A stretch of DNA of 64,000 nt, from positions 1,636,936 to 1,700,935 of the forward strand of contig OZ244872.1 of the NCBI GenBank assembly GCA_965221215.1, written 5' to 3'. A program made the position numbers and the translations under genes. The notes beneath the pieces are model-generated. The model was given only the letters and a program-made list of their open reading frames with translations. It searched no databases and was not told where the DNA came from. The stretch's first letter is position 1; every line of letters begins with the position of its first letter. Origin of the DNA: Candidatus Aldehydirespirator sp. (GTDB taxonomy: Bacteria; Actinomycetota; Acidimicrobiia; Acidimicrobiales; Aldehydirespiratoraceae). Positions 10,410 through 53,895 of this stretch are shown here, piece after piece.

Positions 10410-13400
10410 TCAGATGCCGAGGCGCCCGACCAGCGTCTCGATACGAAGACCGATAGCGGAGGAATCCAGCCAGGCCCGCAACTCAGCACGGGCCGCAGCG
10501 TTGGTGACTGGCCTGCCCTCGGCCCGAAGCCGGCGCTGGAACCGTCCAAACCGAGCGGCCGCCTGGTAGGTGGCCTGATGGCCGGCGACCGCCAACTCCC
10601 GATGCACCGCCAACCCCGGATCGTAGGCAGGCACTGGCAGACGCCAGAGGTGCTTGTGGAGATCCCGGGCGCCGTACTGGCCCTTGGACATGTAGGGCTT
10701 GACTGCGTCGGCCAGAGTCCGCGAGTTGATGACTGCCGAGAGGAAGCATGCCTCGGCCAATCCTGAACAGTCGATCCGATACAGCGAACTGTCCACTATG
10801 GCCGAACTGGCGATGAGTGCCACGGCGGTGGGATGACCCGACTTCGAATAGAGCAGACGAGCCTCGTGTACCGGCATCTGGGACTCGAGCTTTCCGAAGT
10901 AGTCGATCTGGTCAAGGAGGCTGAGCTTGTTGTGGCCAGACTTGTGCTGCTCCCAGAGCTGCTCGATGGTCCGCCAACGCCGGCGCGCCCGCTCGCCGAC
11001 CTTGAGATAGTCGAGGGTTCCGTCCGCCTGCCGGGGCACCGAATCGTCTCCTGCTCTGATCGGGAGAACAGCCTGACAGGGCTCCATCGTCACGAACGGC
11101 GCGATCGTGTCGCCGCGGTGAACCTCAAACACATGCTCGCCCTCGACCGAGCCGACGACCTCCAAGTCGGAGACATCGAGGTCCTTCCACGGCTGCTTCT
11201 CTTGCGTGGACCGCACCGTCGATACCTGGTACACCCCGCGAGCCAGCGAGATCTCCGACGGCCAGGCCTTCACGAAAAAGAAGCGACGCGGCATGAGCGA
11301 CGCCCCCTGCTTGGCCCGTTCGGCATAGGGCGACAAGTCCGGCCCCCTCGCCGCGCCAACGGTCAGTGTTCGCGTGTTCGGCCCTCCCGCCGGACCTTCC
11401 CACAGCACGACCTGATCCGACAGAGGCTCGTCGCCCTGGCTGCGGCGAGCGAACACCACCGAGCCCGGCACGGGGAAGAAGTCGTTCGGCACGATCCTCT
11501 CCAGATCCCACGGCGGCTCGCTCAGATCGGCCAGCACGGAGCCCCATCGCCCGCTGCGCCACTTGCGGTACTGGTCCTGTCCGAGCGCGGAGTGCGGCAT
11601 CACCATGGCCGAACGCCCGCCCTCAGCCAGGTACAGATCGAAGCAGCGAGCGTAGAACAGCGCGGCGAGATCCTGGTGCGGCGCATACTTTCCGCCAGCC
11701 CAGATCTCATAGAGGCCCGCCGATAGCTGCCGAAGCGAGTCGCGGATGCTTGCCTCGGCCTGGCTGTAGGTGAGCCAGGGCGGATTGCCAACGATCCGAT
11801 CGACCCTTCCTTCGACGGTGGTCAACCACCAGGGCCGCACCAGATTGCGGGTGTAATACGCCCAGACGTGGTTGCGGTTGCGGGCGTGGAGTCCTCTGAG
11901 AGTGTTGAGTGTCTGCGACAGCACATCGCGGTCGCGGCCCGCGGTCACATTGAACTCGTCGAGAACGGTCACCGGATCGAGGCCAGCGGCCACTTCCGTT
12001 GCAGCGCGGATCATCAGACGGTCGAAACGCCCGCGCTGCGCCACCAGGCGCTTCGGGAAGGCCAGTTGAAGCGTGCCCTCCCCAGAGTGCTCTGGCAGAA
12101 CCTCAACATGTATGTCGGGCGCGTCGCCCAGCAGGGTTCCCGCGTCGGAGCGCAGCTGCATGCTGTCGCCGAGATACACGGGAACAGCCAGTTCACCAAC
12201 GTTGGCTGCGCTCCCGATCACTTCGCGCGCCGCCAGCACCCAGGTGGCCCTGGCGAGATGTACCGCCACCGGATGTATATCGACGCCGATCACCGACCGC
12301 TGCAAGCCGGCGAGGGCGTCCTCGGGACTCATGCCCGTTCGGTCTGCGGCTGCGGTGTAGCAAACGACCGCCGCCCTCAGGAACGTGCCGGAGCCGCAGG
12401 CCGGATCGAGCACCCGCTGCGATAGCGGCTCATCCACCACATCGCCGACCACCGCCTCGGCGAGCCAGTCGGGTGTGTAGTACTCGCCGAGGCGCTTGCG
12501 CTCCCCCGGCCCGATGACGCTCTGGTAGAGAACCCGGGCGACGTCGTAGTCGGCCGAGGCCCAGTCGAAGCGCGCCACCCAGCGAGCCAGCGAGGCAACC
12601 TCCTCGGAACCCGAGTCGAACTCGACCGGCCAGCCGAAGAAATCCGACTCCACCACGCCCGCCACCCCCACGGAGTCAACGAACGCCGAGCCGTCGAGCA
12701 AGTGGCCGGGATTCCTTTCGGCGCGGTCCTCCAAGCTCACACCGAACGCGGCCTGCACCGCCAACGCCACAACCGTCGACAGGTAAGTGTGGCGCACGAA
12801 CAACTCGTCGAGATCAGCCTCGGCGTTCACAGCCTCCCCGAGAGCAACGGCAAGCAAGGTCTGCCACAGTTCACGCTTGACAGCTACGGTCGGCGAGTTG
12901 CGGTTGACGCCGTAGAGGGCTTGGAGAGCAGCAATGTGGCCTCGTGCCCGCAGACTGGCACCGAATGCCGCCGCGACAAGATCGGGCGCGGGCGCGCGCT
13001 GATGCCCGGGAAGCACCTGGGTGCGCGAGGTGATCCACTCGATCCAGTCGGATGCGCCACTGGCATCACGCAGCATGAACGTGGACTCGGGCACTGCCTC
13101 CTCCGCAGCTTCGCCAGGCAGGCGCACAAACCAGTTTCGGCCGTCAGTGAGGACGCCTAATCGAGCCTCGGCCCCGGGCCGGGTGAGATATTCCTCGAGC
13201 TGGGCGAGATGCGTCGGATCGGGATTGGTGCCCGATCCAGCCGTGCGGCGCTTGACCTCGATGATCAGGTCCTCAGTTCGAATGTCGTTCCGGTCGGCTT
13301 CAAGGCGGACGGCCGCACGGGAAGCAATCCCCGCTGCCACCAACAAGTCGACGATGCCGGCCACGAGGTCAGCTTCGCTGGAACGGACCTCGGCGGGCTG

Positions 13401-44238: not shown

Positions 44239-44648
44239 TCGACAGAAGGGGCGCGCCCACTCAGGCTCTCAGGGGTCGTTTGGCGGAACAATGACCTCGC
44301 ATCGAGGGCCGCTGGCTCGGGCGATGCGACGATCGAGGGTGATCAGCGGCCATCCCACCGTCTCGGCTAGGGCGACGTACCACGCGTCGTAGGCGGTGAC
44401 GTTGGCTCGCAATTCCCACACGCGCTCCGCAAAGGGAGCAAACGGGTAGCGCTCCATGTTGAGCCGAAGCAGGTCCCGGCACGCGGCTGTCGCCTCGAGG
44501 CGCGTGACCCATCCGGTCAGCTCCAGCCGCCGCAGCAGGTTCGTGGCTTCCGCTAGGGCCAGTTCGGGCACAGCCAAGGAAGCCGTAGAGATCGCAGCGC
44601 GAGCCCAAGGGCCGTCAGTCTGCGAATCGACTAGAGCCGCTACCAGCA

Positions 44649-46093
44649 GGTGGCGTCTCATCGCCGGTGTAATAGCAGCAGGGGCGTAGGTTCCTTCAGA
44701 GAGATGTCGACTCAAGAAGGAGACCTACGCCCGTGCCTGCACGAGTATCGCCCACAGAAGCTGTCCGCGCCGAGATCGACGAGTTGTTCGGCTCGGGACG
44801 CGACATCGCCGAGGTCCTCGAGGAGGTGATGCGCCTGTCGGCGCGGCTTGTGTTGCAGCAGGTCCTCGAGGATGAGGTCACGGCCTGGCTGGGCCGGGGC
44901 TGGAACTCGCGTGCCGAGGGCGGGCGCGCCGGTCAGCGCAACGGCTACGGCGACTTGACGGTCAAGACCACCGCGGGGCCCGTGGCGCTGCGCCGCCCGA
45001 AGCTGCGCAACACCGCCGAGGCGTTCGCGTCGCAGCTTCTGGGCAAAGGCGTGGTGCGCTCTGAGCCGCTGGAGGCGCTGGTGATCTCAGCGTGGGTGCG
45101 GGGCCTGTCTGACCGCGACATCGAGGCCTTGTTGGCGGAGGCGCTGGGACCGGAGGCCGCTTTGTCGAGGTCCACCGCGTCGCGGATCTGCGCGCGGCTG
45201 CGTGAGGAGTTCGACACGTTCCGCAGCTCAGACCTCTCCGATATCGAGCTGGACTACCTGTTCGTTGACGGCAGCCACTTCAAGATGCACGACGGGTCAC
45301 GCGCTGAACCGGTGCTGGTCGCCTACGGCATCACTACCCTCGGCCGGCCGGTGCTGCTGGCCGTGGAGCCCGGCGGCGACGAGTCCTACGACGCCTGGGC
45401 AGACTTCCTCGAAGACCTCACCGGCCGGGGGCTGCGGCCGCCGCTGCTGGTCGTCTCAGACGGCGCCGCGGGCCTCATCGGCGCCGTCGAGACCAAAATG
45501 GCCTCCTCGCTGCGCCAGCGGTGCCTCATCCACCGCTGCCGCAACGTGTTGGCCAAGGTCCCCGCCGGTCGCCGAGACGAGCTCAAGGCCGCGTTCTGGG
45601 CGATCTTCGACCTGCCCGACGGCATCGAGCCCGGCCAGGGGGCCGTGAGCGCGGCACAAGCCGGCATCGACGGCTTCGCCCGCCGCTACCAAAGCGAGTT
45701 CCCCGCCGCCGTGAAGTGCCTGCTCACCGACCGCGCCGCGCTCACCGCGCACCTGCGGTTCCCCGCAGAGCACCACCGCAGGATCCGCCACACCAACCTG
45801 ATCGAGCGCACCTTCGGCGAGACCCGCCGAAGAGTCAAAGTCATCGGCCGGCTCCCCGGCGAAGCCAGCTGCCTCACACTGGTATGGGCCGTGCTCGACC
45901 GGGCCTCAAACGGCTGGCGAGGCCTCACCTACACACCCGCCATCGCCCGAGCCCTCACCGAGCTCCGACACCAACTCCACCAACCCGCCCGCACCAACAC
46001 CGACCAGCCCGACCGCACCGTCACACGCGCCGCCTAACATGACCACCGGAACCTGCGCCCCAACCGCTATTACACCCAATCTGGGACGCCACC
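44649..46093 (+). mobile_element. IS256-family insertion sequence, 1445 bp, 9-bp TSD CTACCAGCA
   Basis: TIRs GGTGGCGTCTCATCGCCGGTGTAATAGC and (reverse complement) GGTGGCGTCCCAGATTGGGTGTAATAGC; TSD at 44640-44648 and 46094-46102. Confidence 0.95.
44733..46037 (+). CDS. IS256/Mutator-family DDE transposase
   Basis: GQRNGY, GLSDRDI, LFVDG, VVSDG, QRCLIH, TNLIERTFGE; SD AAGGAG. Confidence 0.95.
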   Translation: MPARVSPTEAVRAEIDELFGSGRDIAEVLEEVMRLSARLVLQQVLEDEVTAWLGRGWNSRAEGGRAGQRNGYGDLTVKTTAGPVALRRPKLRNTAEAFASQLLGKGVVRSEPLEALVISAWVRGLSDRDIEALLAEALGPEAALSRSTASRICARLREEFDTFRSSDLSDIELDYLFVDGSHFKMHDGSRAEPVLVAYGITTLGRPVLLAVEPGGDESYDAWADFLEDLTGRGLRPPLLVVSDGAAGLIGAVETKMASSLRQRCLIHRCRNVLAKVPAGRRDELKAAFWAIFDLPDGIEPGQGAVSAAQAGIDGFARRYQSEFPAAVKCLLTDRAALTAHLRFPAEHHRRIRHTNLIERTFGETRRRVKVIGRLPGEASCLTLVWAVLDRASNGWRGLTYTPAIARALTELRHQLHQPARTNTDQPDRTVTRAA

Positions 46094-46123
46094 CTACCAG
46101 CACCGACGAATCGACAACAGCAC

Positions 46124-46360
46124 TCACTTGCGGTCAGCGTCACGGGCTTCAAGGATGACAGAGGCCGGAATCACGGTGCCCGAGGCATCGACGCGGCGGC
46201 GAACCTCGTTCATCACGGTCTCGATTGAAGGCAACCCAGAGAGCCGTTCCAGTTCGCCGAGCAGGTACTCCTGCATGGACTGACGCTTGAGAGCGGCTCG
46301 GGCCGCCAGCTCGTCGCGAACCTCCTCGGGCACATTCCTGATGGTGATCTGAACTGGCAT
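46124..46360 (-). CDS. vapB: FitA/VapB-like ribbon-helix-helix antitoxin
   Basis: QITIRNVPEEVRDELAARAA...SMQEYL; stop overlaps the vapC GTG (GTGA 46127-46124). Confidence 0.88.
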   Translation of the reverse strand: MPVQITIRNVPEEVRDELAARAALKRQSMQEYLLGELERLSGLPSIETVMNEVRRRVDASGTVIPASVILEARDADRK

Positions 46361-46522
46361 GCAAGCATTTTGCCTTCAGTGCCAGCAGTTTGCAATTGCC
46401 CGGTTGGTTGTAGCGGATGGCGGCGGTCAACTATCAAGACTCGGGAACCGGTCTGCGGCCATGCTGCAATTCTCAACGGCGGTTGTGAGCCTCTGGCGCC
46501 CGCAGGCACTAGAACTAGCGGC

Positions 46523-48919
46523 GTGATCGCCGAGTCTCTCGCCGGCAAGCGCATCGCCATCACCGGGGCCACCGGGTTCTTGGGGACCGCGCTCACCGAG
46601 CGCCTGCTGCGCTGCGTGCCCGACTGTGAGCTGGTGCTGGTGGTGCGACCGGGCCGCCGGGGAGCGGCCCAGCGGGTGGAGCGAGACGTGCTGCGCAACG
46701 ACGCCTTCGAACGGCTCCGCCAGCAGATGGACGGCGACGACACGGCGGCCACCGACGCCGAACCCGCCAGAGCAGGCGCCGCCGGAGCGGAGACCTACGA
46801 CGAGATGGCGGCCCGGCGGGTCACCGCCCTCGCCGGCGACGTCGGCATCGACGGGCTTGGACTCGACGACGAGGGCCGGGCCCTGCTGGCCGGCTGCGAC
46901 GTCGTGATCCACTCGGCGGCCACCGTGAACTTCGACTCCGCCCTCGACGACGCGGTGGAGGTCAACCTCCTGGGACCGGCCCGGGTGGCGACAGTGCTGG
47001 CCGAGGCAGGATCGCAGGCCCACCTGATCTCGGTGTCTACCTGCTACGTGGCCGGCAGCCGCCGCGGCGCCGCCGGTGAACAGCTGGTGGACGACTCGCC
47101 GTTCTTCATCGGCGTCCCCTGGCAGGACGAGGTCGACAGCGCCCGCCAGGCCCGCCGCGACGCCGAGCAGGCCAGCCGCAGCCCCGAGCAGCTCGCCGAC
47201 CTGTCGGCCCAGGCCCGCCGGGAGCTCGGCGCGGCCGGCATCCCCGCTCTCGCCGACAAGGTGGAGAGCCTGCGGCGGCGCTGGGTGGGCGACCAGATGA
47301 CCAGAGCGGGCCGGGCCAGGGCGGCGAGCCTCGGCTTCCCCGACGCCTACGCCTTCACCAAGGCCCTGGGCGAGCGGGCGCTGGCCGAGACCCGCGGCGA
47401 CATCGCCGTCACCATCGTGCGGCCCTCGATCATCGAGTCGGCCCTGGCCGAGCCCCGCCCCGGATGGATCAGGGGCTTCCGCATGGCCGAGCCGGTCATC
47501 GCGGCCTATGCTCGGGGCCTGCTCAAGGACTTTCCCGGTGTGCCCGAGGGCGTCATCGACGTGATCCCGGTGGACCTGGTGGTGGCCACCATCCTGGCGG
47601 TGGCGGCCCGAGGCCCGGTCGAGCCCACCCCCGACGTCATCCAGGTGGCCAGCGGGTCGATCAACCCGCTGAAGTACGGCAAGCTCTTCGACCTGGTGAG
47701 CGGCTGGTTCACCGAGCATCCCGTCTACGACGAGTACAACCAGCCGATCCCGGTGCCGCGCTGGTCGTTCCCGGGCCGGGGCCGGGTGGCCCGCCAGCTG
47801 CAGCGGGCCCAGCGCTCGCTGGAGGCCGCCGACCGGGTGCTGTCGGCTCTGCCGCTGCGGGGCCGCCACGCCCTGATGAGCGCCGGCGTGGAGGAGCGGC
47901 GCCAGCAGCTCGGACGGGCCAACGAATACGTCGAGCTGTACGGCGCCTACGCCGAGTGCGAGGCCATCTACCAGCTCGACCGGCTCATGGAGCTGTGGAA
48001 CTCGCTCGACGACGCTGACCGGGCCGAGTTCTGCTTCGACCCGGCCGTGATCGACTGGACCCGCTACGTGCACGAGGTGCATCTGCCGTCCATGGTGGAG
48101 CAGGCCCGACTGAAGATGGCGCCGGGGGCCGGCACGGGCCGCAGCCAGTCGCGTTCGGTGCGCCTGCGCCGCCAGGTGCTCGACCCGCAGCGCCATTTGG
48201 CCGTGTTCGACCTGGAGAACACCCTCATCGCCTCCAACGTGGTGGCCAGCTACGCCTGGCTGGCCACCCGCGAGCTCGACGACCTCGACCGGCTGCGCTT
48301 CGTGGCCCGCACCCTGGGCGAGGCGCCCCGGCTGCTGGCGCTGGACCGGCGCGATCGCAGCGACTTCCTGCGCTACTTCTACCGGCGCTTCGAGGGCGCT
48401 CCAGTGGACCGCATCGGCGCCGACTGCTCCGAGATGCTCAGCGACCTGCTCATCACCAAGTCGTTCCCCCAGGGGCTGCGCCGGGTCCGCGAGCACCGGC
48501 GGGCGGGACACCGGACGCTGCTCATCACCGGAGCGCTCGACTTCGTGGTGGCTCCGCTGCGGCCCCTGTTCGATCACATCATCGCAGCCGAGATGAGCGC
48601 CAGCGACGGCGTGTACGACGGGCGGCTCACCGCGGTGCCCCCCACCGGCGAGGCCCGCTACCAGACGCTGGTCGACTTCACCGAACTGCACGGCCTCGAC
48701 CTGCGGGAGTCGGTGGCCTACGCCGACAGCACCTCGGACCTGCCGATGCTGGAAGCGGTGGGGTTCCCGGTGGCGGTCAACCCCGAGACCAAGCTGGCCG
48801 CGCTGGCCCGGCGCCGGGGCTGGCTGATCGAGCACTGGTCGAAGAGCGCGGGGGCGCCGGCCAAGCCTCTGCCGCTGGCGCCGCGGACCCGCCGCGCCGA
48901 CCTCGTAGGGTCCCGCTGA
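46523..48919 (+). CDS. Fatty acyl-CoA reductase (male-sterility type SDR) fused to a HAD-IB phosphatase
   Basis: ITGATGFLG, HSAATV, YAFTK, RPSII, DVIPVD; then FDLENTL, ITGAL and AYADSTSD HAD motifs. Confidence 0.85.
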   Translation: MIAESLAGKRIAITGATGFLGTALTERLLRCVPDCELVLVVRPGRRGAAQRVERDVLRNDAFERLRQQMDGDDTAATDAEPARAGAAGAETYDEMAARRVTALAGDVGIDGLGLDDEGRALLAGCDVVIHSAATVNFDSALDDAVEVNLLGPARVATVLAEAGSQAHLISVSTCYVAGSRRGAAGEQLVDDSPFFIGVPWQDEVDSARQARRDAEQASRSPEQLADLSAQARRELGAAGIPALADKVESLRRRWVGDQMTRAGRARAASLGFPDAYAFTKALGERALAETRGDIAVTIVRPSIIESALAEPRPGWIRGFRMAEPVIAAYARGLLKDFPGVPEGVIDVIPVDLVVATILAVAARGPVEPTPDVIQVASGSINPLKYGKLFDLVSGWFTEHPVYDEYNQPIPVPRWSFPGRGRVARQLQRAQRSLEAADRVLSALPLRGRHALMSAGVEERRQQLGRANEYVELYGAYAECEAIYQLDRLMELWNSLDDADRAEFCFDPAVIDWTRYVHEVHLPSMVEQARLKMAPGAGTGRSQSRSVRLRRQVLDPQRHLAVFDLENTLIASNVVASYAWLATRELDDLDRLRFVARTLGEAPRLLALDRRDRSDFLRYFYRRFEGAPVDRIGADCSEMLSDLLITKSFPQGLRRVREHRRAGHRTLLITGALDFVVAPLRPLFDHIIAAEMSASDGVYDGRLTAVPPTGEARYQTLVDFTELHGLDLRESVAYADSTSDLPMLEAVGFPVAVNPETKLAALARRRGWLIEHWSKSAGAPAKPLPLAPRTRRADLVGSR

Positions 48920-49008
48920 TGGCTGCCCTCCCGCGCGCAGACTTCACCGGGAGACCGGCCTGGATGGCAGCCGTGCGCCCGCACCCCTCACCGGCAGGGC
49001 TCGCCTGA
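48919..49008 (+). CDS. Putative 29-aa relay mini-ORF
   Basis: TGATG overlaps at both ends (48917-48921 and 49006-49010); open frame MAALPRADFTGRPAWMAAVRPHPSPAGLA. Confidence 0.45.
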   Translation: MAALPRADFTGRPAWMAAVRPHPSPAGLA

Positions 49009-50621
49009 TGGCAGCCGAACGAAGAAGTGCCCCGCGGCCGGGGCTGGTGCTCGAGGTCGACCGCTCCACGCCGCCGATCCTGTTCCACCACGGCGAGGGC
49101 TTCCGGTTGGAGAGGCTGCCGCCGGGCCGCAGCCGGATCATCTACCCGGCCGAGCCCCTCGCCGGCCTCCCCGACCCCGAGGCCGCCATCCGCCACGCCC
49201 TGCTCAACCCGCTCGACTCCGATCCGCTGCCGTCGCTGCTGCGGCCCGGCATGAAGCTCACCATCGCCTTCGACGACATCTCGCTGCCGCTGCCGCCTAT
49301 GCGGCGTCCCGACATCCGCCAGCGGATAATCGAGCAGGTTCTCGACATGGCGGCCGCCGCCGGAGTGGACGACGTCCACCTCATCGCCGCGCTGGCCCTG
49401 CACCGCCGCATGACCGACGACGAGCTGCGCCACGCGCTGGGCGAGCGGGTGTTCGACGCCTTCGCCCCGCAGGGCGCGCTCTACAACCACGACGCCGAGG
49501 ATCCCGACGGCATGGTGGAGCTGGGCCGCACCAACCACGACGAGCTGGTCACCATGAACCGCCGGGCCGCGGAGAGCGACCTGCTGGTGTACGTCAACAT
49601 CAACCTCGTGTCGATGGACGGGGGCTGGAAGTCCACCGCCACCGGCCTGGCCGACTACCGGGCGCTGCGCCACCACCACAACGTGGGCACCATGCAGCGC
49701 TCCCGCTCGTTCATGGACCGCCACCGCTCCGAGTTGCACCACTCCAACTGGCGCCAGGGCGAGGTGATCAAGGCCAACGGGCCGCCCATCTTCCAGATCG
49801 AGACCACCGTCAACAACAACACCTTCGGCCTCGACGGCCCCCTGGCCGTGCTGCAGAAGCGAGAGTGGGAGTGGAGCGCCCGAGACCGGGCCTCGTTCAT
49901 GGCCATGCACGCCGGGCTGCGGGCCATGCCGGCCTCCGCCTGCCGGGGCGTGTTCAACCGCTGGCTGGCGCCCTATGAGATGACCTCGGTGCAGGCCGGC
50001 GCGGTGGAGCCGGTCCACGAGAGCACCACCGCCAACGTGCTGGCCCAGCATCTGGTGCCGGTGCAGGGCCAGACCGACGTTCTCACCATGGGGCTGCCCT
50101 ACATCTGCCCCTACAACGTCAACTCGGTGATGAACCCGATCCTGGTGATGTGCCTGGGCTTGGGCTACTTCTTCAATCTCTACCGGGGCCGGCCGCTGGT
50201 GCGCGAGGGCGGCGTGGTCATCATGAGCCACCCCACCCGCCGGGAGTTCCACCCGGTGCACCACCCCAGCTACATCGACTTCTTCGAGCAGGTGCTGGCC
50301 GAGACCACCGACCCGGCCGAGGTGGAGGCCAAGTACGAGGCCCAGTTCGCCACCGACGAGTGGTATGTGCACCTCTACCGCACCAGCTACGCCTACCACG
50401 GGGTGCATCCCTTCTACATGTGGTACTGGGGGGCGCACGCCCTGCAATGGCTGGGACGGGTGATCGTGGTGGGCGGCGACGAGCGGGCAGTGCGGCGGAT
50501 GGGCTTCCAGCCCGCATCCACCCTGTCGGACGCTCTGGAGATGGCCAGCGACGTGGTGGGCCCGGCACCCACCATCACCCACCTGCACAACCCGCCCATC
50601 CTCATGGCCGACGTGGAGTAG
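49008..50621 (+). CDS. Lactate racemase (LarA/DUF2088)-like protein
   Basis: TIAFDDISLP, ALALHRRM, NHDAED, NRRAAESDL, GGWKS motifs. Family assigned from memory of the N-terminal domain. Confidence 0.7.
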   Translation: MAAERRSAPRPGLVLEVDRSTPPILFHHGEGFRLERLPPGRSRIIYPAEPLAGLPDPEAAIRHALLNPLDSDPLPSLLRPGMKLTIAFDDISLPLPPMRRPDIRQRIIEQVLDMAAAAGVDDVHLIAALALHRRMTDDELRHALGERVFDAFAPQGALYNHDAEDPDGMVELGRTNHDELVTMNRRAAESDLLVYVNINLVSMDGGWKSTATGLADYRALRHHHNVGTMQRSRSFMDRHRSELHHSNWRQGEVIKANGPPIFQIETTVNNNTFGLDGPLAVLQKREWEWSARDRASFMAMHAGLRAMPASACRGVFNRWLAPYEMTSVQAGAVEPVHESTTANVLAQHLVPVQGQTDVLTMGLPYICPYNVNSVMNPILVMCLGLGYFFNLYRGRPLVREGGVVIMSHPTRREFHPVHHPSYIDFFEQVLAETTDPAEVEAKYEAQFATDEWYVHLYRTSYAYHGVHPFYMWYWGAHALQWLGRVIVVGGDERAVRRMGFQPASTLSDALEMASDVVGPAPTITHLHNPPILMADVE

Positions 50622-50625
50622 CCCG

Positions 50626-50730
50626 ATGGCATTGCGTCGATCACCGTGCCGGACGCAGCATGACGGCTCTACCGGGTACTCGGCACCAAGCCGCGATGAG
50701 GCCGGACGCGGCATGGCCGACGTGGAATAG
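50626..50730 (+). CDS. Putative 34-aa relay mini-ORF
   Basis: ATG 4 nt after the upstream TAG; ends MADVE-TAG (a copy of the upstream gene's last codons) 3 nt before the plsC GTG. Confidence 0.4.
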   Translation: MALRRSPCRTQHDGSTGYSAPSRDEAGRGMADVE

Positions 50731-50733
50731 CCA

Positions 50734-51687
50734 GTGGGCATCGCGCACGACCTCGGCCTGGTGCGGATGCGGCGCCGCCTGCCGTCGCCGGCCAGGGCGT
50801 TCAGGGCCCGGTCTTTCCCGCTGAGGGCGCCCAACGTGCCCGGCGGTGTGGCGCCGGTCGAGGCTCCGGGTCGCACCGGCGCCGACTTTGACACCGCCTG
50901 GGCCCGCCGCTGGCCGGCCCGCATGGGCCGAGCCGCCGTCGTCGAGGGACCGATGCGGGCCATGGTGCAGGTGCTGGCCTCGCCCCGCCGCCGCGGTGCC
51001 GACCGGTTGGCCGACCTCGACGGCGCGCTGATCTTCGCCGCCAACCACCACAGCCACCTCGACACTCCGCTGCTGCTCACCTCGATCCCCGAGCCGTGGC
51101 GCCACAAGATCGTGGTGGGAGCGGCGGCCGACTATTTCTTCAGCACCCGGCTGGCGGGCGCCACCGCCGCGCTGGTGATGGGCGCCGTCCCCATCGAGCG
51201 GGCCCGGGTGGGCCGCCGGTCAGCCGACCTCGCCGCCGCGTTGATCGACGACGGCTGGAGCCTGCTCATCTACCCCGAGGGAGGTCGCAGCCCCGACGGC
51301 TGGGGCCAGCCGTTCAGGGGCGGGGCGGCCTACCTGGCCGTGCGCTGCGGCGTGCCGGTGGTGCCGGTGCATGTGGGCGGCACCGGCAGCATCCTGCGCA
51401 AGGGCCGCACCATGCCCCGGCCCGCGGCGGCCACGGTGACCTTCGGCACCCCGCTGCGGCCCGCGGCGGGCGAGCGCGCCCCCCGGTTCGCGGCCCGAAT
51501 AGAGGCGGCGGTAACCGCCTTGGCCGACGAGGCCGCCACCGACTGGTACTCGGCCCGCAAACGGGCCCACGCCAACGCCAGCGGCACCCTGACCGGCCCC
51601 GATGCCGGTGTCTGGCGCCGCCAATGGGCCCTAGACGGCCGCCGCCGCACCCCCGCAACCCGCCCCCGCCGCTGGCCCAGCCTGTAA
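50734..51687 (+). CDS. Lysophospholipid acyltransferase (PlsC family)
   Basis: ANHHSHLD (HX4D), IYPEGGRS, VPVVPV. Confidence 0.9.
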   Translation: MGIAHDLGLVRMRRRLPSPARAFRARSFPLRAPNVPGGVAPVEAPGRTGADFDTAWARRWPARMGRAAVVEGPMRAMVQVLASPRRRGADRLADLDGALIFAANHHSHLDTPLLLTSIPEPWRHKIVVGAAADYFFSTRLAGATAALVMGAVPIERARVGRRSADLAAALIDDGWSLLIYPEGGRSPDGWGQPFRGGAAYLAVRCGVPVVPVHVGGTGSILRKGRTMPRPAAATVTFGTPLRPAAGERAPRFAARIEAAVTALADEAATDWYSARKRAHANASGTLTGPDAGVWRRQWALDGRRRTPATRPRRWPSL

Positions 51688-51815
51688 CAACGCGCCCACC
51701 TGCGCCGCAACCGCAGTCAGCGAAATGGATGTGGCGCATCTTGCGCTGCACAGGGTTGTGATGTTCTTTGGTGCCATTGAGCATCCTCCAGGGCATACCT
51801 AGTAGATTGACCCGC

Positions 51816-52808
51816 ATGGTGACCGCAACCCGGACCGGGGCGCCGACGATTGAAGACGCCAGGCGGGCCGCGGCGGCGCTGCTGGATGCAGGCGTGAGCG
51901 AGGTCTGGCTCTACGGCTCGGTGGCACGCGGCGAGTCTGACATTCGCAGCGACATCGACCTTGTGGCCGTGTTCGACGACCTGGACTACCGCCGCCGGCT
52001 CTGGGTGAGGATGGAACTCAACCGCACAGCGAGCGCCGCATGCGACCAGAACGTCGAGGTGCTCGTGACCGACCGTCCCGAATGGCGCATCCAGACAAGC
52101 CAGGTGCCCACATCCTTCGCTAATGCTATTTCAGATAATCTTGTGTTATTAGCTGTTGTACCCTGTATAACCACGGATGTGGACTGGGACAAGCCACAGG
52201 TGATGGCCACCTCCGATGAGGAACTGGCCGACGAGCGCCTAGACGCCATCCGTCTCAACGTGGACATGATCGCCTCAAACCTCGAACCCAGCTGGGCCGA
52301 GCGGGAGCTGGTCGACACCGACGACCGCACAGAGTTCGAGGCGGTGCGGGGTGCCCGGCTGATCGCGGTGTGCGCGGCCTCGCACCTGGCGATCGAGAAC
52401 TCGGCCAAGGCTCTGGCGGTGACCTCCGGTGTCGAGGCTCAAACCCTGTGGACCCACGACGTCAAGGAACTCGTCGCCTCGCTCGACAAGGAGGACAATG
52501 ACGCCGTTGAGCAGATGCTGGCCGCCGCGCCCGACCTGGTGCAGTCGCCCGGCTACATAACCATGTGGCGCGAGCGGGGCGCGTACGGCGGCCCCACCGA
52601 AGGAATGACGGCCCAAGAGGTAGCCACCCCGGCCTTCACCACCGCGCTGGCAACCATCGCCTGCGATGTGGCCCTGTACGCCGCCGAAACCCTAGACCGC
52701 CCCACCCGACGGCGACCCGCCGCTGAGCGAGTACGCCGCCGTGCAACCACCACCCGCCAGCGCCTAACCAACTTCGACATAGCCACCGGAAACCCAACCA
52801 CCCCATAG
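51816..52808 (+). CDS. Fused minimal nucleotidyltransferase (MNT) + HEPN-like domain protein
   Basis: LYGSVARG...SDIDL (GSX10DXD); C-half AIENSAKAL...THDVKEL...WRERGAY. TAGATT -10 at 51803-51808. Confidence 0.75.
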   Translation: MVTATRTGAPTIEDARRAAAALLDAGVSEVWLYGSVARGESDIRSDIDLVAVFDDLDYRRRLWVRMELNRTASAACDQNVEVLVTDRPEWRIQTSQVPTSFANAISDNLVLLAVVPCITTDVDWDKPQVMATSDEELADERLDAIRLNVDMIASNLEPSWAERELVDTDDRTEFEAVRGARLIAVCAASHLAIENSAKALAVTSGVEAQTLWTHDVKELVASLDKEDNDAVEQMLAAAPDLVQSPGYITMWRERGAYGGPTEGMTAQEVATPAFTTALATIACDVALYAAETLDRPTRRRPAAERVRRRATTTRQRLTNFDIATGNPTTP

Positions 52809-52828: not shown

Positions 52829-53788
52829 CTACAGGCGGCTGCCGGTGAGGAGGTCGTGGTTCTCGAGAGTCTCGGCCGCCCGCTCGATGATCGGGCGGAT
52901 GCGGGCTATGACGGGACTGTCGGACCGCTCTCTTGAAGCCTCGCTGGCGGCGATGGCTGCAACGTTGATCGCCGCCCCAGCAATCCGGGGAGCCAGCTCC
53001 GATGTCACCCGCAGGTCTATGTCGGGGCGGTCCGCGATGTAGGTGCCGGCCTGCCGCCAGATCGATATATCGCCATAGGGGGCGCGGTCATCCGACACAG
53101 AGTTGTGCTCGAAGTCAGCAAGAGTGTCCCTCACAGCGTCGGCGTGCTCGCCGGCGAGAGGAACGAGCAGATCGATCTTGTGCTTGAACGGTGCCGGTGT
53201 GCCCGCCAACGCGGCCAGCGCCTTGATAGAGGTCTCGATGGCCATGGCCGCAGCCGAGCAGATGTCGATCATTCTCCAGTGGGGCAGGCTCTCGTCCCGC
53301 GTCTCGACGATCTCCCATTCGTCAGGCAGCATTCTGGCTCGCATCAGATTGAGCGCCTTGGCCACCTCGTCGATGCGGCCCAGCGCCTCGTCAATATTGT
53401 TGTCGGGCAATCCGATCTCCTTGTCCCAATTCACCGCCCCAGCCGGGCGGTCAATGAGCATCACCGCTGTTGGCGCGATGCCCGCCTCAAAAGAAGACGA
53501 CACGGTACAGGTGCGCCGCTGCCACTCCGGCCGGTCGGTGACATGCACCTCCACAGGCCGCCCGACGGCCTCCTCGGCGGCATTGGAGAGGCCGACACGA
53601 AGTTGGAGGCGCTGCGAATAGTCGATGTCGTCGAAGACCGCCACCAAGTCGATGTCGCTGTGAGCGCTGGCATCGCCGCGAGCCACCGAACCGTACAGCA
53701 GCACCCGCGACGCCCCGGCCGCCGCAAGCTTCTCGGCAGCACGGCAAGCATCGTCCCTGGTGGGAGCAGTCAGCGGCACCGCAATCAC
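52829..53788 (-). CDS. Second fused MNT + HEPN-like protein (paralog, convergent)
   Basis: LYGSVARG...SDIDLVAVFDDIDY; AIETSIKAL...KHKIDLL...WRQAGTY. TAGCGT -10 7 nt before GTG 53788. Confidence 0.75.
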   Translation of the reverse strand: MIAVPLTAPTRDDACRAAEKLAAAGASRVLLYGSVARGDASAHSDIDLVAVFDDIDYSQRLQLRVGLSNAAEEAVGRPVEVHVTDRPEWQRRTCTVSSSFEAGIAPTAVMLIDRPAGAVNWDKEIGLPDNNIDEALGRIDEVAKALNLMRARMLPDEWEIVETRDESLPHWRMIDICSAAAMAIETSIKALAALAGTPAPFKHKIDLLVPLAGEHADAVRDTLADFEHNSVSDDRAPYGDISIWRQAGTYIADRPDIDLRVTSELAPRIAGAAINVAAIAASEASRERSDSPVIARIRPIIERAAETLENHDLLTGSRL

Positions 53789-53895
53789 GCCCCCAACGCT
53801 ATAGCCCGTCCCATCCACGGGCCGTAGACCGCCGTGGGGTATCCGAAGCCTCGAGCACGCCGTGCGGTGAATGCGGCCGGTCCGACCTACACGAA

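Follow-up and report, generated by a model that had tools for sequence, protein, structure and literature searches.

Three co-directional genes on the + strand of a contig from Candidatus Aldehydirespirator sp. (assembly GCA_965221215.1, contig OZ244872.1) encode a fusion of a fatty acyl-CoA/ACP reductase with a HAD phosphatase-type domain (FAR-HAD), a homologue of lactate racemase LarA (LarAH) and a PlsC-type acyltransferase. They occupy positions 46523-51687 of the 64,000 nt stretch that was analysed, here termed the window, which has a G+C content of 70%. The three genes probably constitute the Acidimicrobiales version of the elb ether-lipid module of myxobacteria, with its parts split and fused differently, and their product would then be an ether-linked glycerolipid. 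The clade to which this genome belongs has, to judge from its gene content, lost the Zn-dependent dehydrogenase and the TetR regulator found with the operon in relatives, as well as the nickel-cofactor genes larB and larC. As a result, the LarA homologue must either work without the nickel-pincer cofactor (NPN) made by LarBCE or obtain its cofactor by another route.

The elb locus of Myxococcus xanthus comprises, in order, elbA (an SDR), elbB (a HAD protein, PF12710), elbC (Lar_N), elbD and elbE (a second SDR). ElbD, 1470 aa in length, combines NAD_binding_4, Sterile, AMP-binding, PP-binding and Acyltransferase domains; it is the product of MXAN_1528 (PMC11980068), and is needed for the alkyl ether lipids of M. 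xanthus (PMC9131029, reviewing Lorenzen et al. 2014). As the elb locus retrieved from the databases carries a Lar_N protein at the elbC position, ElbC is, on its domain content, a LarA homologue, and this protein (MXAN_1529) is assigned to Group 15 of the LarA homologues in Dataset S1 of Desguin et al. 2020. The link is implicit in a supplementary table of that study, and none of the papers searched on lactate racemase and ether lipids was found to state it.

When the M. xanthus Elb proteins were searched by BLAST against the window's own genome, the only match to ElbC was the LarA homologue of the operon (51% identity over 525 aa, E = 7e-172). Likewise, the sole match to ElbB was the HAD domain encoded immediately 5' of the LarAH gene (35% identity over 217 aa), and the sole match to residues 9-565 of ElbD was the reductase domain of the same fusion protein (28% over about 590 aa). 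The acyltransferase domain of ElbD (residues 1265-1404) found three proteins in the genome, of which the PlsC-type enzyme of the operon was the best (34% over 148 aa, E = 5e-11; the other two had E = 5e-7 and 8e-5). An earlier note on this DNA, made without database searches, had remarked on a resemblance to the elb cluster, which is borne out by this homology to ElbB, ElbC and both end domains of ElbD. The NAD_binding_4/Sterile reductase, PF12710 HAD, Lar_N and PF01553 blocks are common to both loci, with the HAD and LarA-type genes adjacent in each, but the reductase is fused to the HAD domain in the window and to the acyltransferase in elb. Most actinobacterial versions include, in addition to the elb parts, a Zn-dehydrogenase and a TetR regulator, neither of which is present in the window. 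In the supplement of Desguin 2020, the genes surrounding Group 14 encode PlsC, HAD, COG1063 and a thioester-reductase COG, and those surrounding Group 15 encode two SDRs, a HAD protein and an acyl-CoA synthetase, the latter context being that of the elb operon.

From this homology, together with synteny, the pattern of conserved residues, the absence of larB and larC and the signature of purifying selection, we infer each of the following chemical steps and their product. The reductase domain would reduce an acyl thioester, of CoA or ACP, to the fatty aldehyde or alcohol; the ElbC-type LarA homologue would act on the glycerol-phosphate backbone, or on an adduct of the aldehyde with the backbone; the PlsC-type enzyme would add an acyl chain; and the HAD-IB domain would remove phosphate. 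The LarA homologue would be the best candidate for the ether-forming or ether-enabling step, which should involve no inversion of a stereocentre because the protein has one acid/base histidine only. The product is most likely a glycerolipid with a 1-O-alkyl (ether-linked) chain, or the phosphate precursor of such a lipid. The pairing of a fatty-acyl reductase with a glycerol-phosphate-type acyltransferase is shared with the eukaryotic and myxobacterial FAR1/GNPAT/AGPS route, from which the operon differs in having no AGPS flavoenzyme.

The domain assignments on which this scheme depends agree between Pfam and NCBIfam matches and the earlier note's gene calls of a FAR-HAD fusion, a LarA-like protein and PlsC. 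In the FAR-HAD protein, the Pfam profile search placed NAD_binding_4 (PF07993) at residues 13-357 (E = 2e-52) and a weak match to Sterile (PF03015), under its cut-off, at residues 465-519. The Rossmann motif GATGFLG (GxxGxxG) and the catalytic YAFTK (YxxxK) are conserved with ElbD and the orthologues in alignments. The HAD domain matches PF12710 with E = 8e-27 and the HAD-IB model TIGR01490 with 99.7 bits against a cut-off of 98.3; its motif IV reads DSTSD, and its motif I reads DLENT (DxExT), the canonical form being DxDxT. At this motif (window 48200-48230), members of this order have DLENT and those of other actinobacterial families DMEGT, with Glu in place of the general acid/base Asp, and the canonical DxDGT is seen in ElbB, in Rubrobacter and in G052, a genome from another actinobacterial family. 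The acyltransferase matches PF01553 (E = 6e-17), and its translation contains NHHSHLD (HX4D) and the EGTR-like YPEGGRS.

A number of points weigh against an elb-type ether-lipid pathway. None of the three window proteins contains an AMP-binding or PP-binding domain, as the earlier note had observed of adenylation and thiolation domains, and the matches to ElbD residues 590-1100 all lie elsewhere in the genome. Similarly, the window cluster has no genes for ElbA or ElbE, for which the genome offers only weak SDR matches at other sites; in relatives a Zn-dehydrogenase takes their place. Motif I of the HAD domain is noncanonical, and a Frankia Group 14 LarA homologue loaded with NPN was inactive in all seven hydroxy-acid reactions assayed. 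The steps of the elb pathway itself are unsolved, the role of ElbC never having been tested separately (PMC9131029), and ether lipids were not detected in Pontiella, which has ElbD homologues (PMC11868695). No lipid data were found for the source organism or for any carrier among the Acidimicrobiia, and with the cofactor genes absent the LarA homologue could perhaps be structural only here.

The product of the second gene matches the Lar_N domain (PF09861, E = 7e-38) and the NCBIfam model NF052592, which describes LarAH14/15/16, with 887 bits against a cut-off of 740. Its nearest solved structures by sequence are PDB 9q2u (E = 8e-36) and 9q3j (E = 1e-29), both single-histidine LarA homologues, the match to Mar2 being far weaker (7e-10). 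On alignment to 9q2u, using the residue numbers of PMC12611868, His132 corresponds to the catalytic His108 of LarA, Lys208 to the cofactor-tethering Lys184 and His224 to the Ni-binding His200. The second catalytic histidine, at the position of His174, is absent; ten residues before Lys208 lies Ile198, flanked by Asn197 and Asn199. Groups 14 and 15 of the LarA homologues are likewise without His174 (PMC12611868). The mapped residues, including Lys208 and His224, are invariant in 50 orthologues (from 18 LarC-less and 32 other genomes), and across 43 diverse members of the family the H/N/K/HH set is either wholly present or wholly lost, the window protein falling into the all-present class.

In both family and residue pattern the window protein matches LarAH Group 14 (Desguin et al. 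2020; for instance Frankia sp. Franean1_4168 and Rubrobacter Rxyl_2107), which retains the Asp, His108, Lys184 and His200 but has no His174, and the gene context recorded for that group in Table S1 of the same study (COG0204, COG0560, COG1063 and COG3320) is the same as well. It differs from Group 14 in that the COG1063 dehydrogenase lies outside the window operon and that the window genome has no larB or larC. With LarA-Sp and LarA-Bw (9q2u and 9q3j; PMC12611868) it shares the single catalytic His and an Asn near the position of the second; these proteins bind NPN and come from a glycolytic or sugar gene context, whereas the window protein has a lipid gene context, identity to it is low and the Asn stands one residue out of register with the Lys. 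Many genomes encode an additional LarA-like paralogue that is shorter (460-500 aa) and shows 30-38% identity, for example at G070:C14:108139-109536. These shorter paralogues do not adjoin FAR-HAD or PlsC genes, and in one case a gene for an acyl-CoA synthetase lies no more than 3 kb away.

The residue pattern bears directly on the proposal of a true 2-hydroxy-acid racemase or epimerase function for the LarA homologue, whose substrate would be a 2-hydroxy fatty acid or else a head group of the hydroxy-acid type, with a 1,2-diol-based or hydroxy-acyl lipid as the product of the operon. Rubrobacter has been reported to contain long-chain 1,2-diol lipids, and as a member of the LarA superfamily the protein keeps the equivalents of His108, Lys184 and His200. 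A classical racemase activity is nevertheless unlikely, because the protein, like those of Groups 14 and 15, has no second catalytic His, and a two-base mechanism cannot run with a single acid/base histidine. In addition, Arg75 of LarA, which binds carboxylate and phosphate, is not conserved in the Group 14 residue row of the Desguin 2020 supplement, the Frankia LarAH14 protein was inactive on the seven hydroxy-acid reactions, and NPN biosynthesis genes were not found in the window genome. Taken as a whole, such a racemase pathway is judged very improbable. The natural alternative is transient oxidation, with the hydride returned without inversion or moved to an adjacent atom, a mechanism suggested in the LarA literature.

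The window genome is a single 3.37-Mb contig, 96.6% complete, in which neither LarC nor LarB had a profile match, the LarE model found only sub-threshold PP-loop matches, and tblastn returned nothing for the LarB and LarC of a relative from the same order, where the two are encoded side by side. At E = 0.001 the LarB model, which gave no match in the window genome, matched in all 14 control genomes, over its cut-off in six. The same absence holds for the genus, where neither LarC nor LarB was detected in any of 19 genomes while an intact LarA homologue scoring >870 bits is encoded by 18 of them, and LarC was also missing from all of another ten closely related genomes, among which are several chromosome-level assemblies.

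Elsewhere in the phylum the picture differs. LarC is encoded by 45 of the 50 LarAH14-positive genomes in the phylum sample, and in G052 larB (223 bits) and a larC1-like gene stand on the same strand directly 3' of a FAR-HAD/dehydrogenase/LarAH/PlsC operon (G052:C1, L036 ~11650-13050), the LarC match there spanning the N-terminal half only. The link of the LarA homologue to NPN outside this clade consequently looks real. The co-occurrence with LarC is not in itself decisive for NPN dependence, since LarC is common in genomes without Lar_N: it is found in 145 of the 201 sampled genomes, of which 94 have a Lar_N protein, and in 58 of the 107 that have none. Other clients of the cofactor must therefore be common, as ~58 genomes have LarC without a recognisable LarA homologue.

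In the clade that includes the window, the LarA homologue is, on these genomic data, functional without LarBCE-made NPN, and may be cofactor-free, use another ligand, rely on scavenged NPN or act as a scaffold. The earlier note's observation that larBCE genes are missing from the window extends, on profile searches and tblastn, to the whole genome, and its suggestion that the LarA-like protein works without the nickel-pincer cofactor is supported at the level of genomics by the absence of LarB and LarC from genome and genus together with purifying selection; of the cofactor-binding residues that it had proposed to check, Lys208 and His224 are present.

Selection on the three genes was estimated from the 18 LarC-less genomes, in which, with a median dS of ~0.8, the median dN/dS was lowest for LarAH (0.13), followed by FAR-HAD (0.19) and PlsC (0.25), making the LarA homologue the most constrained of the three. 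Its constraint is not relaxed relative to LarC-positive lineages, which is all that this comparison can establish, the LarC-positive pairs being more diverged and saturated in dS. His132, Asn197, Asn199, Lys208, His223 and His224 are invariant in these 18 genomes; as 63% of all columns are invariant in the LarC-less clade, so that all six would be so by chance with a probability of ~0.06, this is weak evidence taken alone.

These data contradict the suggestion that, once the cofactor genes had been lost in the clade, the LarA-like gene was left as a relic in decay. Such a relic might be expected from the joint loss of larB and larC, the in-operon Zn-dehydrogenase and TetR, but the reading frame is intact in 18 of the 19 genus genomes, at >870 bits, and its dN/dS of 0.13 at a median dS of ~0.8 falls below that of both neighbours and does not exceed that of LarC-positive lineages; decay is accordingly scarcely credible. 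A strict coupling of dehydrogenase loss with LarC loss was also considered and rejected, several dehydrogenase-less loci coming from LarC-positive genomes, and one genome (G183) having the dehydrogenase and no LarC.

A further proposal concerns mechanism and is separate from the question of the pathway: that the LarA homologue of the clade still uses a nickel-pincer-type cofactor, acquired from its surroundings or a host or else synthesised by enzymes not recognised as such, and has the same chemistry as in larBCE-bearing relatives. That the catalytic His, the Lys tether and the Ni-ligand His are all invariant in the 18 LarC-less genomes would fit this proposal, as would the larB and larC1-like genes directly 3' of the same operon in G052, the presence of LarC in 45 of the 50 LarAH14-positive genomes, and the sponge association of some close relatives known from metagenome-assembled genomes. 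Set against these are the weakness of the six-residue invariance and the fact that at least 29 genomes, many assembled as one contig, have no LarC and the 19 genus genomes no LarB. Moreover, we know of no route for NPN uptake and no alternative NPN synthesis. Continued use of such a cofactor is therefore rated unlikely. The stronger form of the preferred reading, that ElbC/LarAH14 performs the missing ether-forming or ether-enabling step of an AGPS-independent bacterial pathway, and does so here without LarB/LarC-made NPN, either with no cofactor or with another one at the Lys/His site, is itself speculative and rather doubtful.

The association of the genes is strongly conserved in relatives, the closest of which are Acidimicrobiales near Candidatus Aldehydirespirator, with LarA homologues 93-95% identical. 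All 80 related loci in the Acidimicrobiia have the order FAR-HAD, Zn-dehydrogenase where present, LarAH, PlsC; the PlsC gene lies directly 3' of LarAH in 79 of them, and the remaining locus stops at a contig edge. A Zn-dependent MDR dehydrogenase, absent from the window, stands between FAR-HAD and LarAH in about 48 of the 80 (about 60%), and a divergent TetR gene is found upstream in 49 of the 80 and in none of the loci of the genus. The whole genus, including the window, has the short form of the operon, without dehydrogenase and without TetR. Beyond the order, the same four- or five-gene array occurs in other families of the phylum, so that the arrangement is not an accidental one, and a LarAH14-type gene over the cut-off was found in 50 of the 201 sampled phylum genomes. 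In the window genome, a Zn-dehydrogenase 53-56% identical to the relatives' in-operon enzyme is encoded about 1.4 Mb away (G000:C1:312870-314048; L049 7865-9106, minus strand), where it overlaps by its stop codon a gene for a DAO-family FAD oxidoreductase; it is plausibly orthologous to the in-operon enzyme.

The relatives' dehydrogenase is one of several observations in favour of a different product, namely fatty alcohols together with neutral lipids of a storage or surface kind, such as wax-type esters or alkyl-diacylglycerol-like compounds, in place of membrane ether lipids. The reductase would then supply an alcohol, the acyltransferase would esterify it, and the LarA homologue would be an accessory or scaffold protein. 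Enzymes of the FAR family (PF07993/PF03015) usually provide fatty alcohols for wax esters, which favours this product, and the relatives' Zn-dehydrogenase is weakly similar to the aldehyde reductase Ahr. In part of the wider LarAH family the cofactor residues are all lost, and the Group 16 proteins, which have no lysine, keep the PlsC and HAD context (Desguin 2020), suggesting that the LarA fold can serve without catalysis. Wax is, on the other hand, made by enzymes of the WS/DGAT type and not of the PlsC type, the HAD phosphatase and the PlsY neighbour in Rubrobacter point to a glycerol-phosphate backbone, and constraint among the three genes is strongest on the LarA homologue. A wax-type product is accordingly thought quite unlikely.

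The PlsY neighbour belongs to a cluster in Rubrobacter radiotolerans (CP007514.1) in which PlsY, FAR-HAD, a Zn-dehydrogenase and LarAH are encoded in a row. A study of Rubrobacterales lipids is said to propose an elb-like operon. The R. radiotolerans cluster resembles that of the window in its FAR-HAD fusion and LarAH14-type protein, encoded in the same order, and differs in having PlsY on the 5' side in place of PlsC on the 3' side, a Zn-dehydrogenase, and a canonical DxDxT HAD motif. The host order is described as having dominant 1-O-alkyl/acyl glycerolipids in a paper citing the original work (PMC10821996), which gives the ether-linked share of Rubrobacterales core lipids as ~46% (Sinninghe Damste 2023, as cited there).

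The features of the operon are listed in the table below. The gaps between the genes are 88 nt (FAR-HAD to LarAH) and 112 nt (LarAH to PlsC), and inspection of both revealed no convincing terminator; with the shared strand, this makes co-transcription of the three genes plausible. No sigma-70 consensus was found in the region upstream of the first gene. The GTG start of FAR-HAD, placed at the same position by the earlier note, agrees with the orthologues, and a longer open reading frame beginning with TTG at 46370 fits them less well.

Features of the putative ether-lipid operon in the window
Feature	Position	Strand	Basis
FAR-HAD fusion protein, 798 aa	46523..48919	+	Pfam and NCBIfam matches; alignment of orthologues starts at residue 1
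Fatty acyl-CoA/ACP reductase domain (NAD_binding_4 and Sterile C-terminal region)	46559..48079	+	PF07993, PF03015, motifs
HAD-IB phosphatase-type domain	48200..48754	+	PF12710 residues 560-744; TIGR01490
LarA homologue, LarAH14/15/16 (ElbC) family, 537 aa	49008..50621	+	NF052592, Lar_N, alignment to PDB 9q2u
PlsC/LPLAT-type acyltransferase, 317 aa	50734..51687	+	PF01553, HX4D and PEGGRS motifs
Upstream intergenic region, presumed promoter or leader of operon	46431..46522	+	Sequence reading

Both spacers, with their flanks (48916-49017 and 50603-50745), share short repeated junction sequences, CTGATGGC[T/A]GCC, and a duplicated MADVE-stop. The idea that the 88-nt spacer might be the scar of a deleted Zn-dehydrogenase was discarded, its 29-aa open reading frame being unlike the N- and C-termini of the relatives' dehydrogenases.

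Upstream of the operon in the window are genes for a Mur ligase and Ddl, followed by a vapB-like gene, an IS256/Mutator transposase gene and a PIN gene, none of which form part of the unit. The Mur ligase and Ddl genes are also found upstream in a same-order relative (G105), and because these neighbours match, the operon locus is, on this synteny, inherited and not imported. In the intervening segment (44269-46430), the transposase gene (44733-46037) lies between a PIN-domain open reading frame (vapC-like, a split vapC) and a small vapB-like one, and the vapB-like/transposase/PIN segment occupies exactly the position of the relatives' divergent TetR. Directly after the operon, and likewise outside the unit, two single-chain nucleotidyltransferase-HEPN paralogues (51768-52808 on the + strand and 52829-53830 on the - strand) are arranged tail to tail, followed by aconitase; the pair shares 39% identity, and the genome has one more copy elsewhere.

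The operon joins two unsolved questions: how the alkyl ether bond is formed by the elb route in aerobic bacteria, and what reaction is performed by LarAH Groups 14 to 16. This kind of cluster is known but biochemically unsolved, and the window holds a reduced variant of it, without dehydrogenase, TetR or nickel-cofactor genes. It thereby provides a natural experiment, in that at least 29 genomes keep a constrained LarA homologue without larC (the 19 genus genomes also without larB), while in another family larB and larC are built into the operon, and the contrast between the two makes cofactor dependence directly testable. The LarC-less clade also puts the NCBIfam name 'NPN-dependent hydroxyacid isomerase' in question. 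Were the ether step to proceed without NPN, this would break the assumption that all LarA homologues with intact anchoring residues need that cofactor, and would provide an enzyme that makes ether lipids with simple cofactor needs. [quoted passage not shown]

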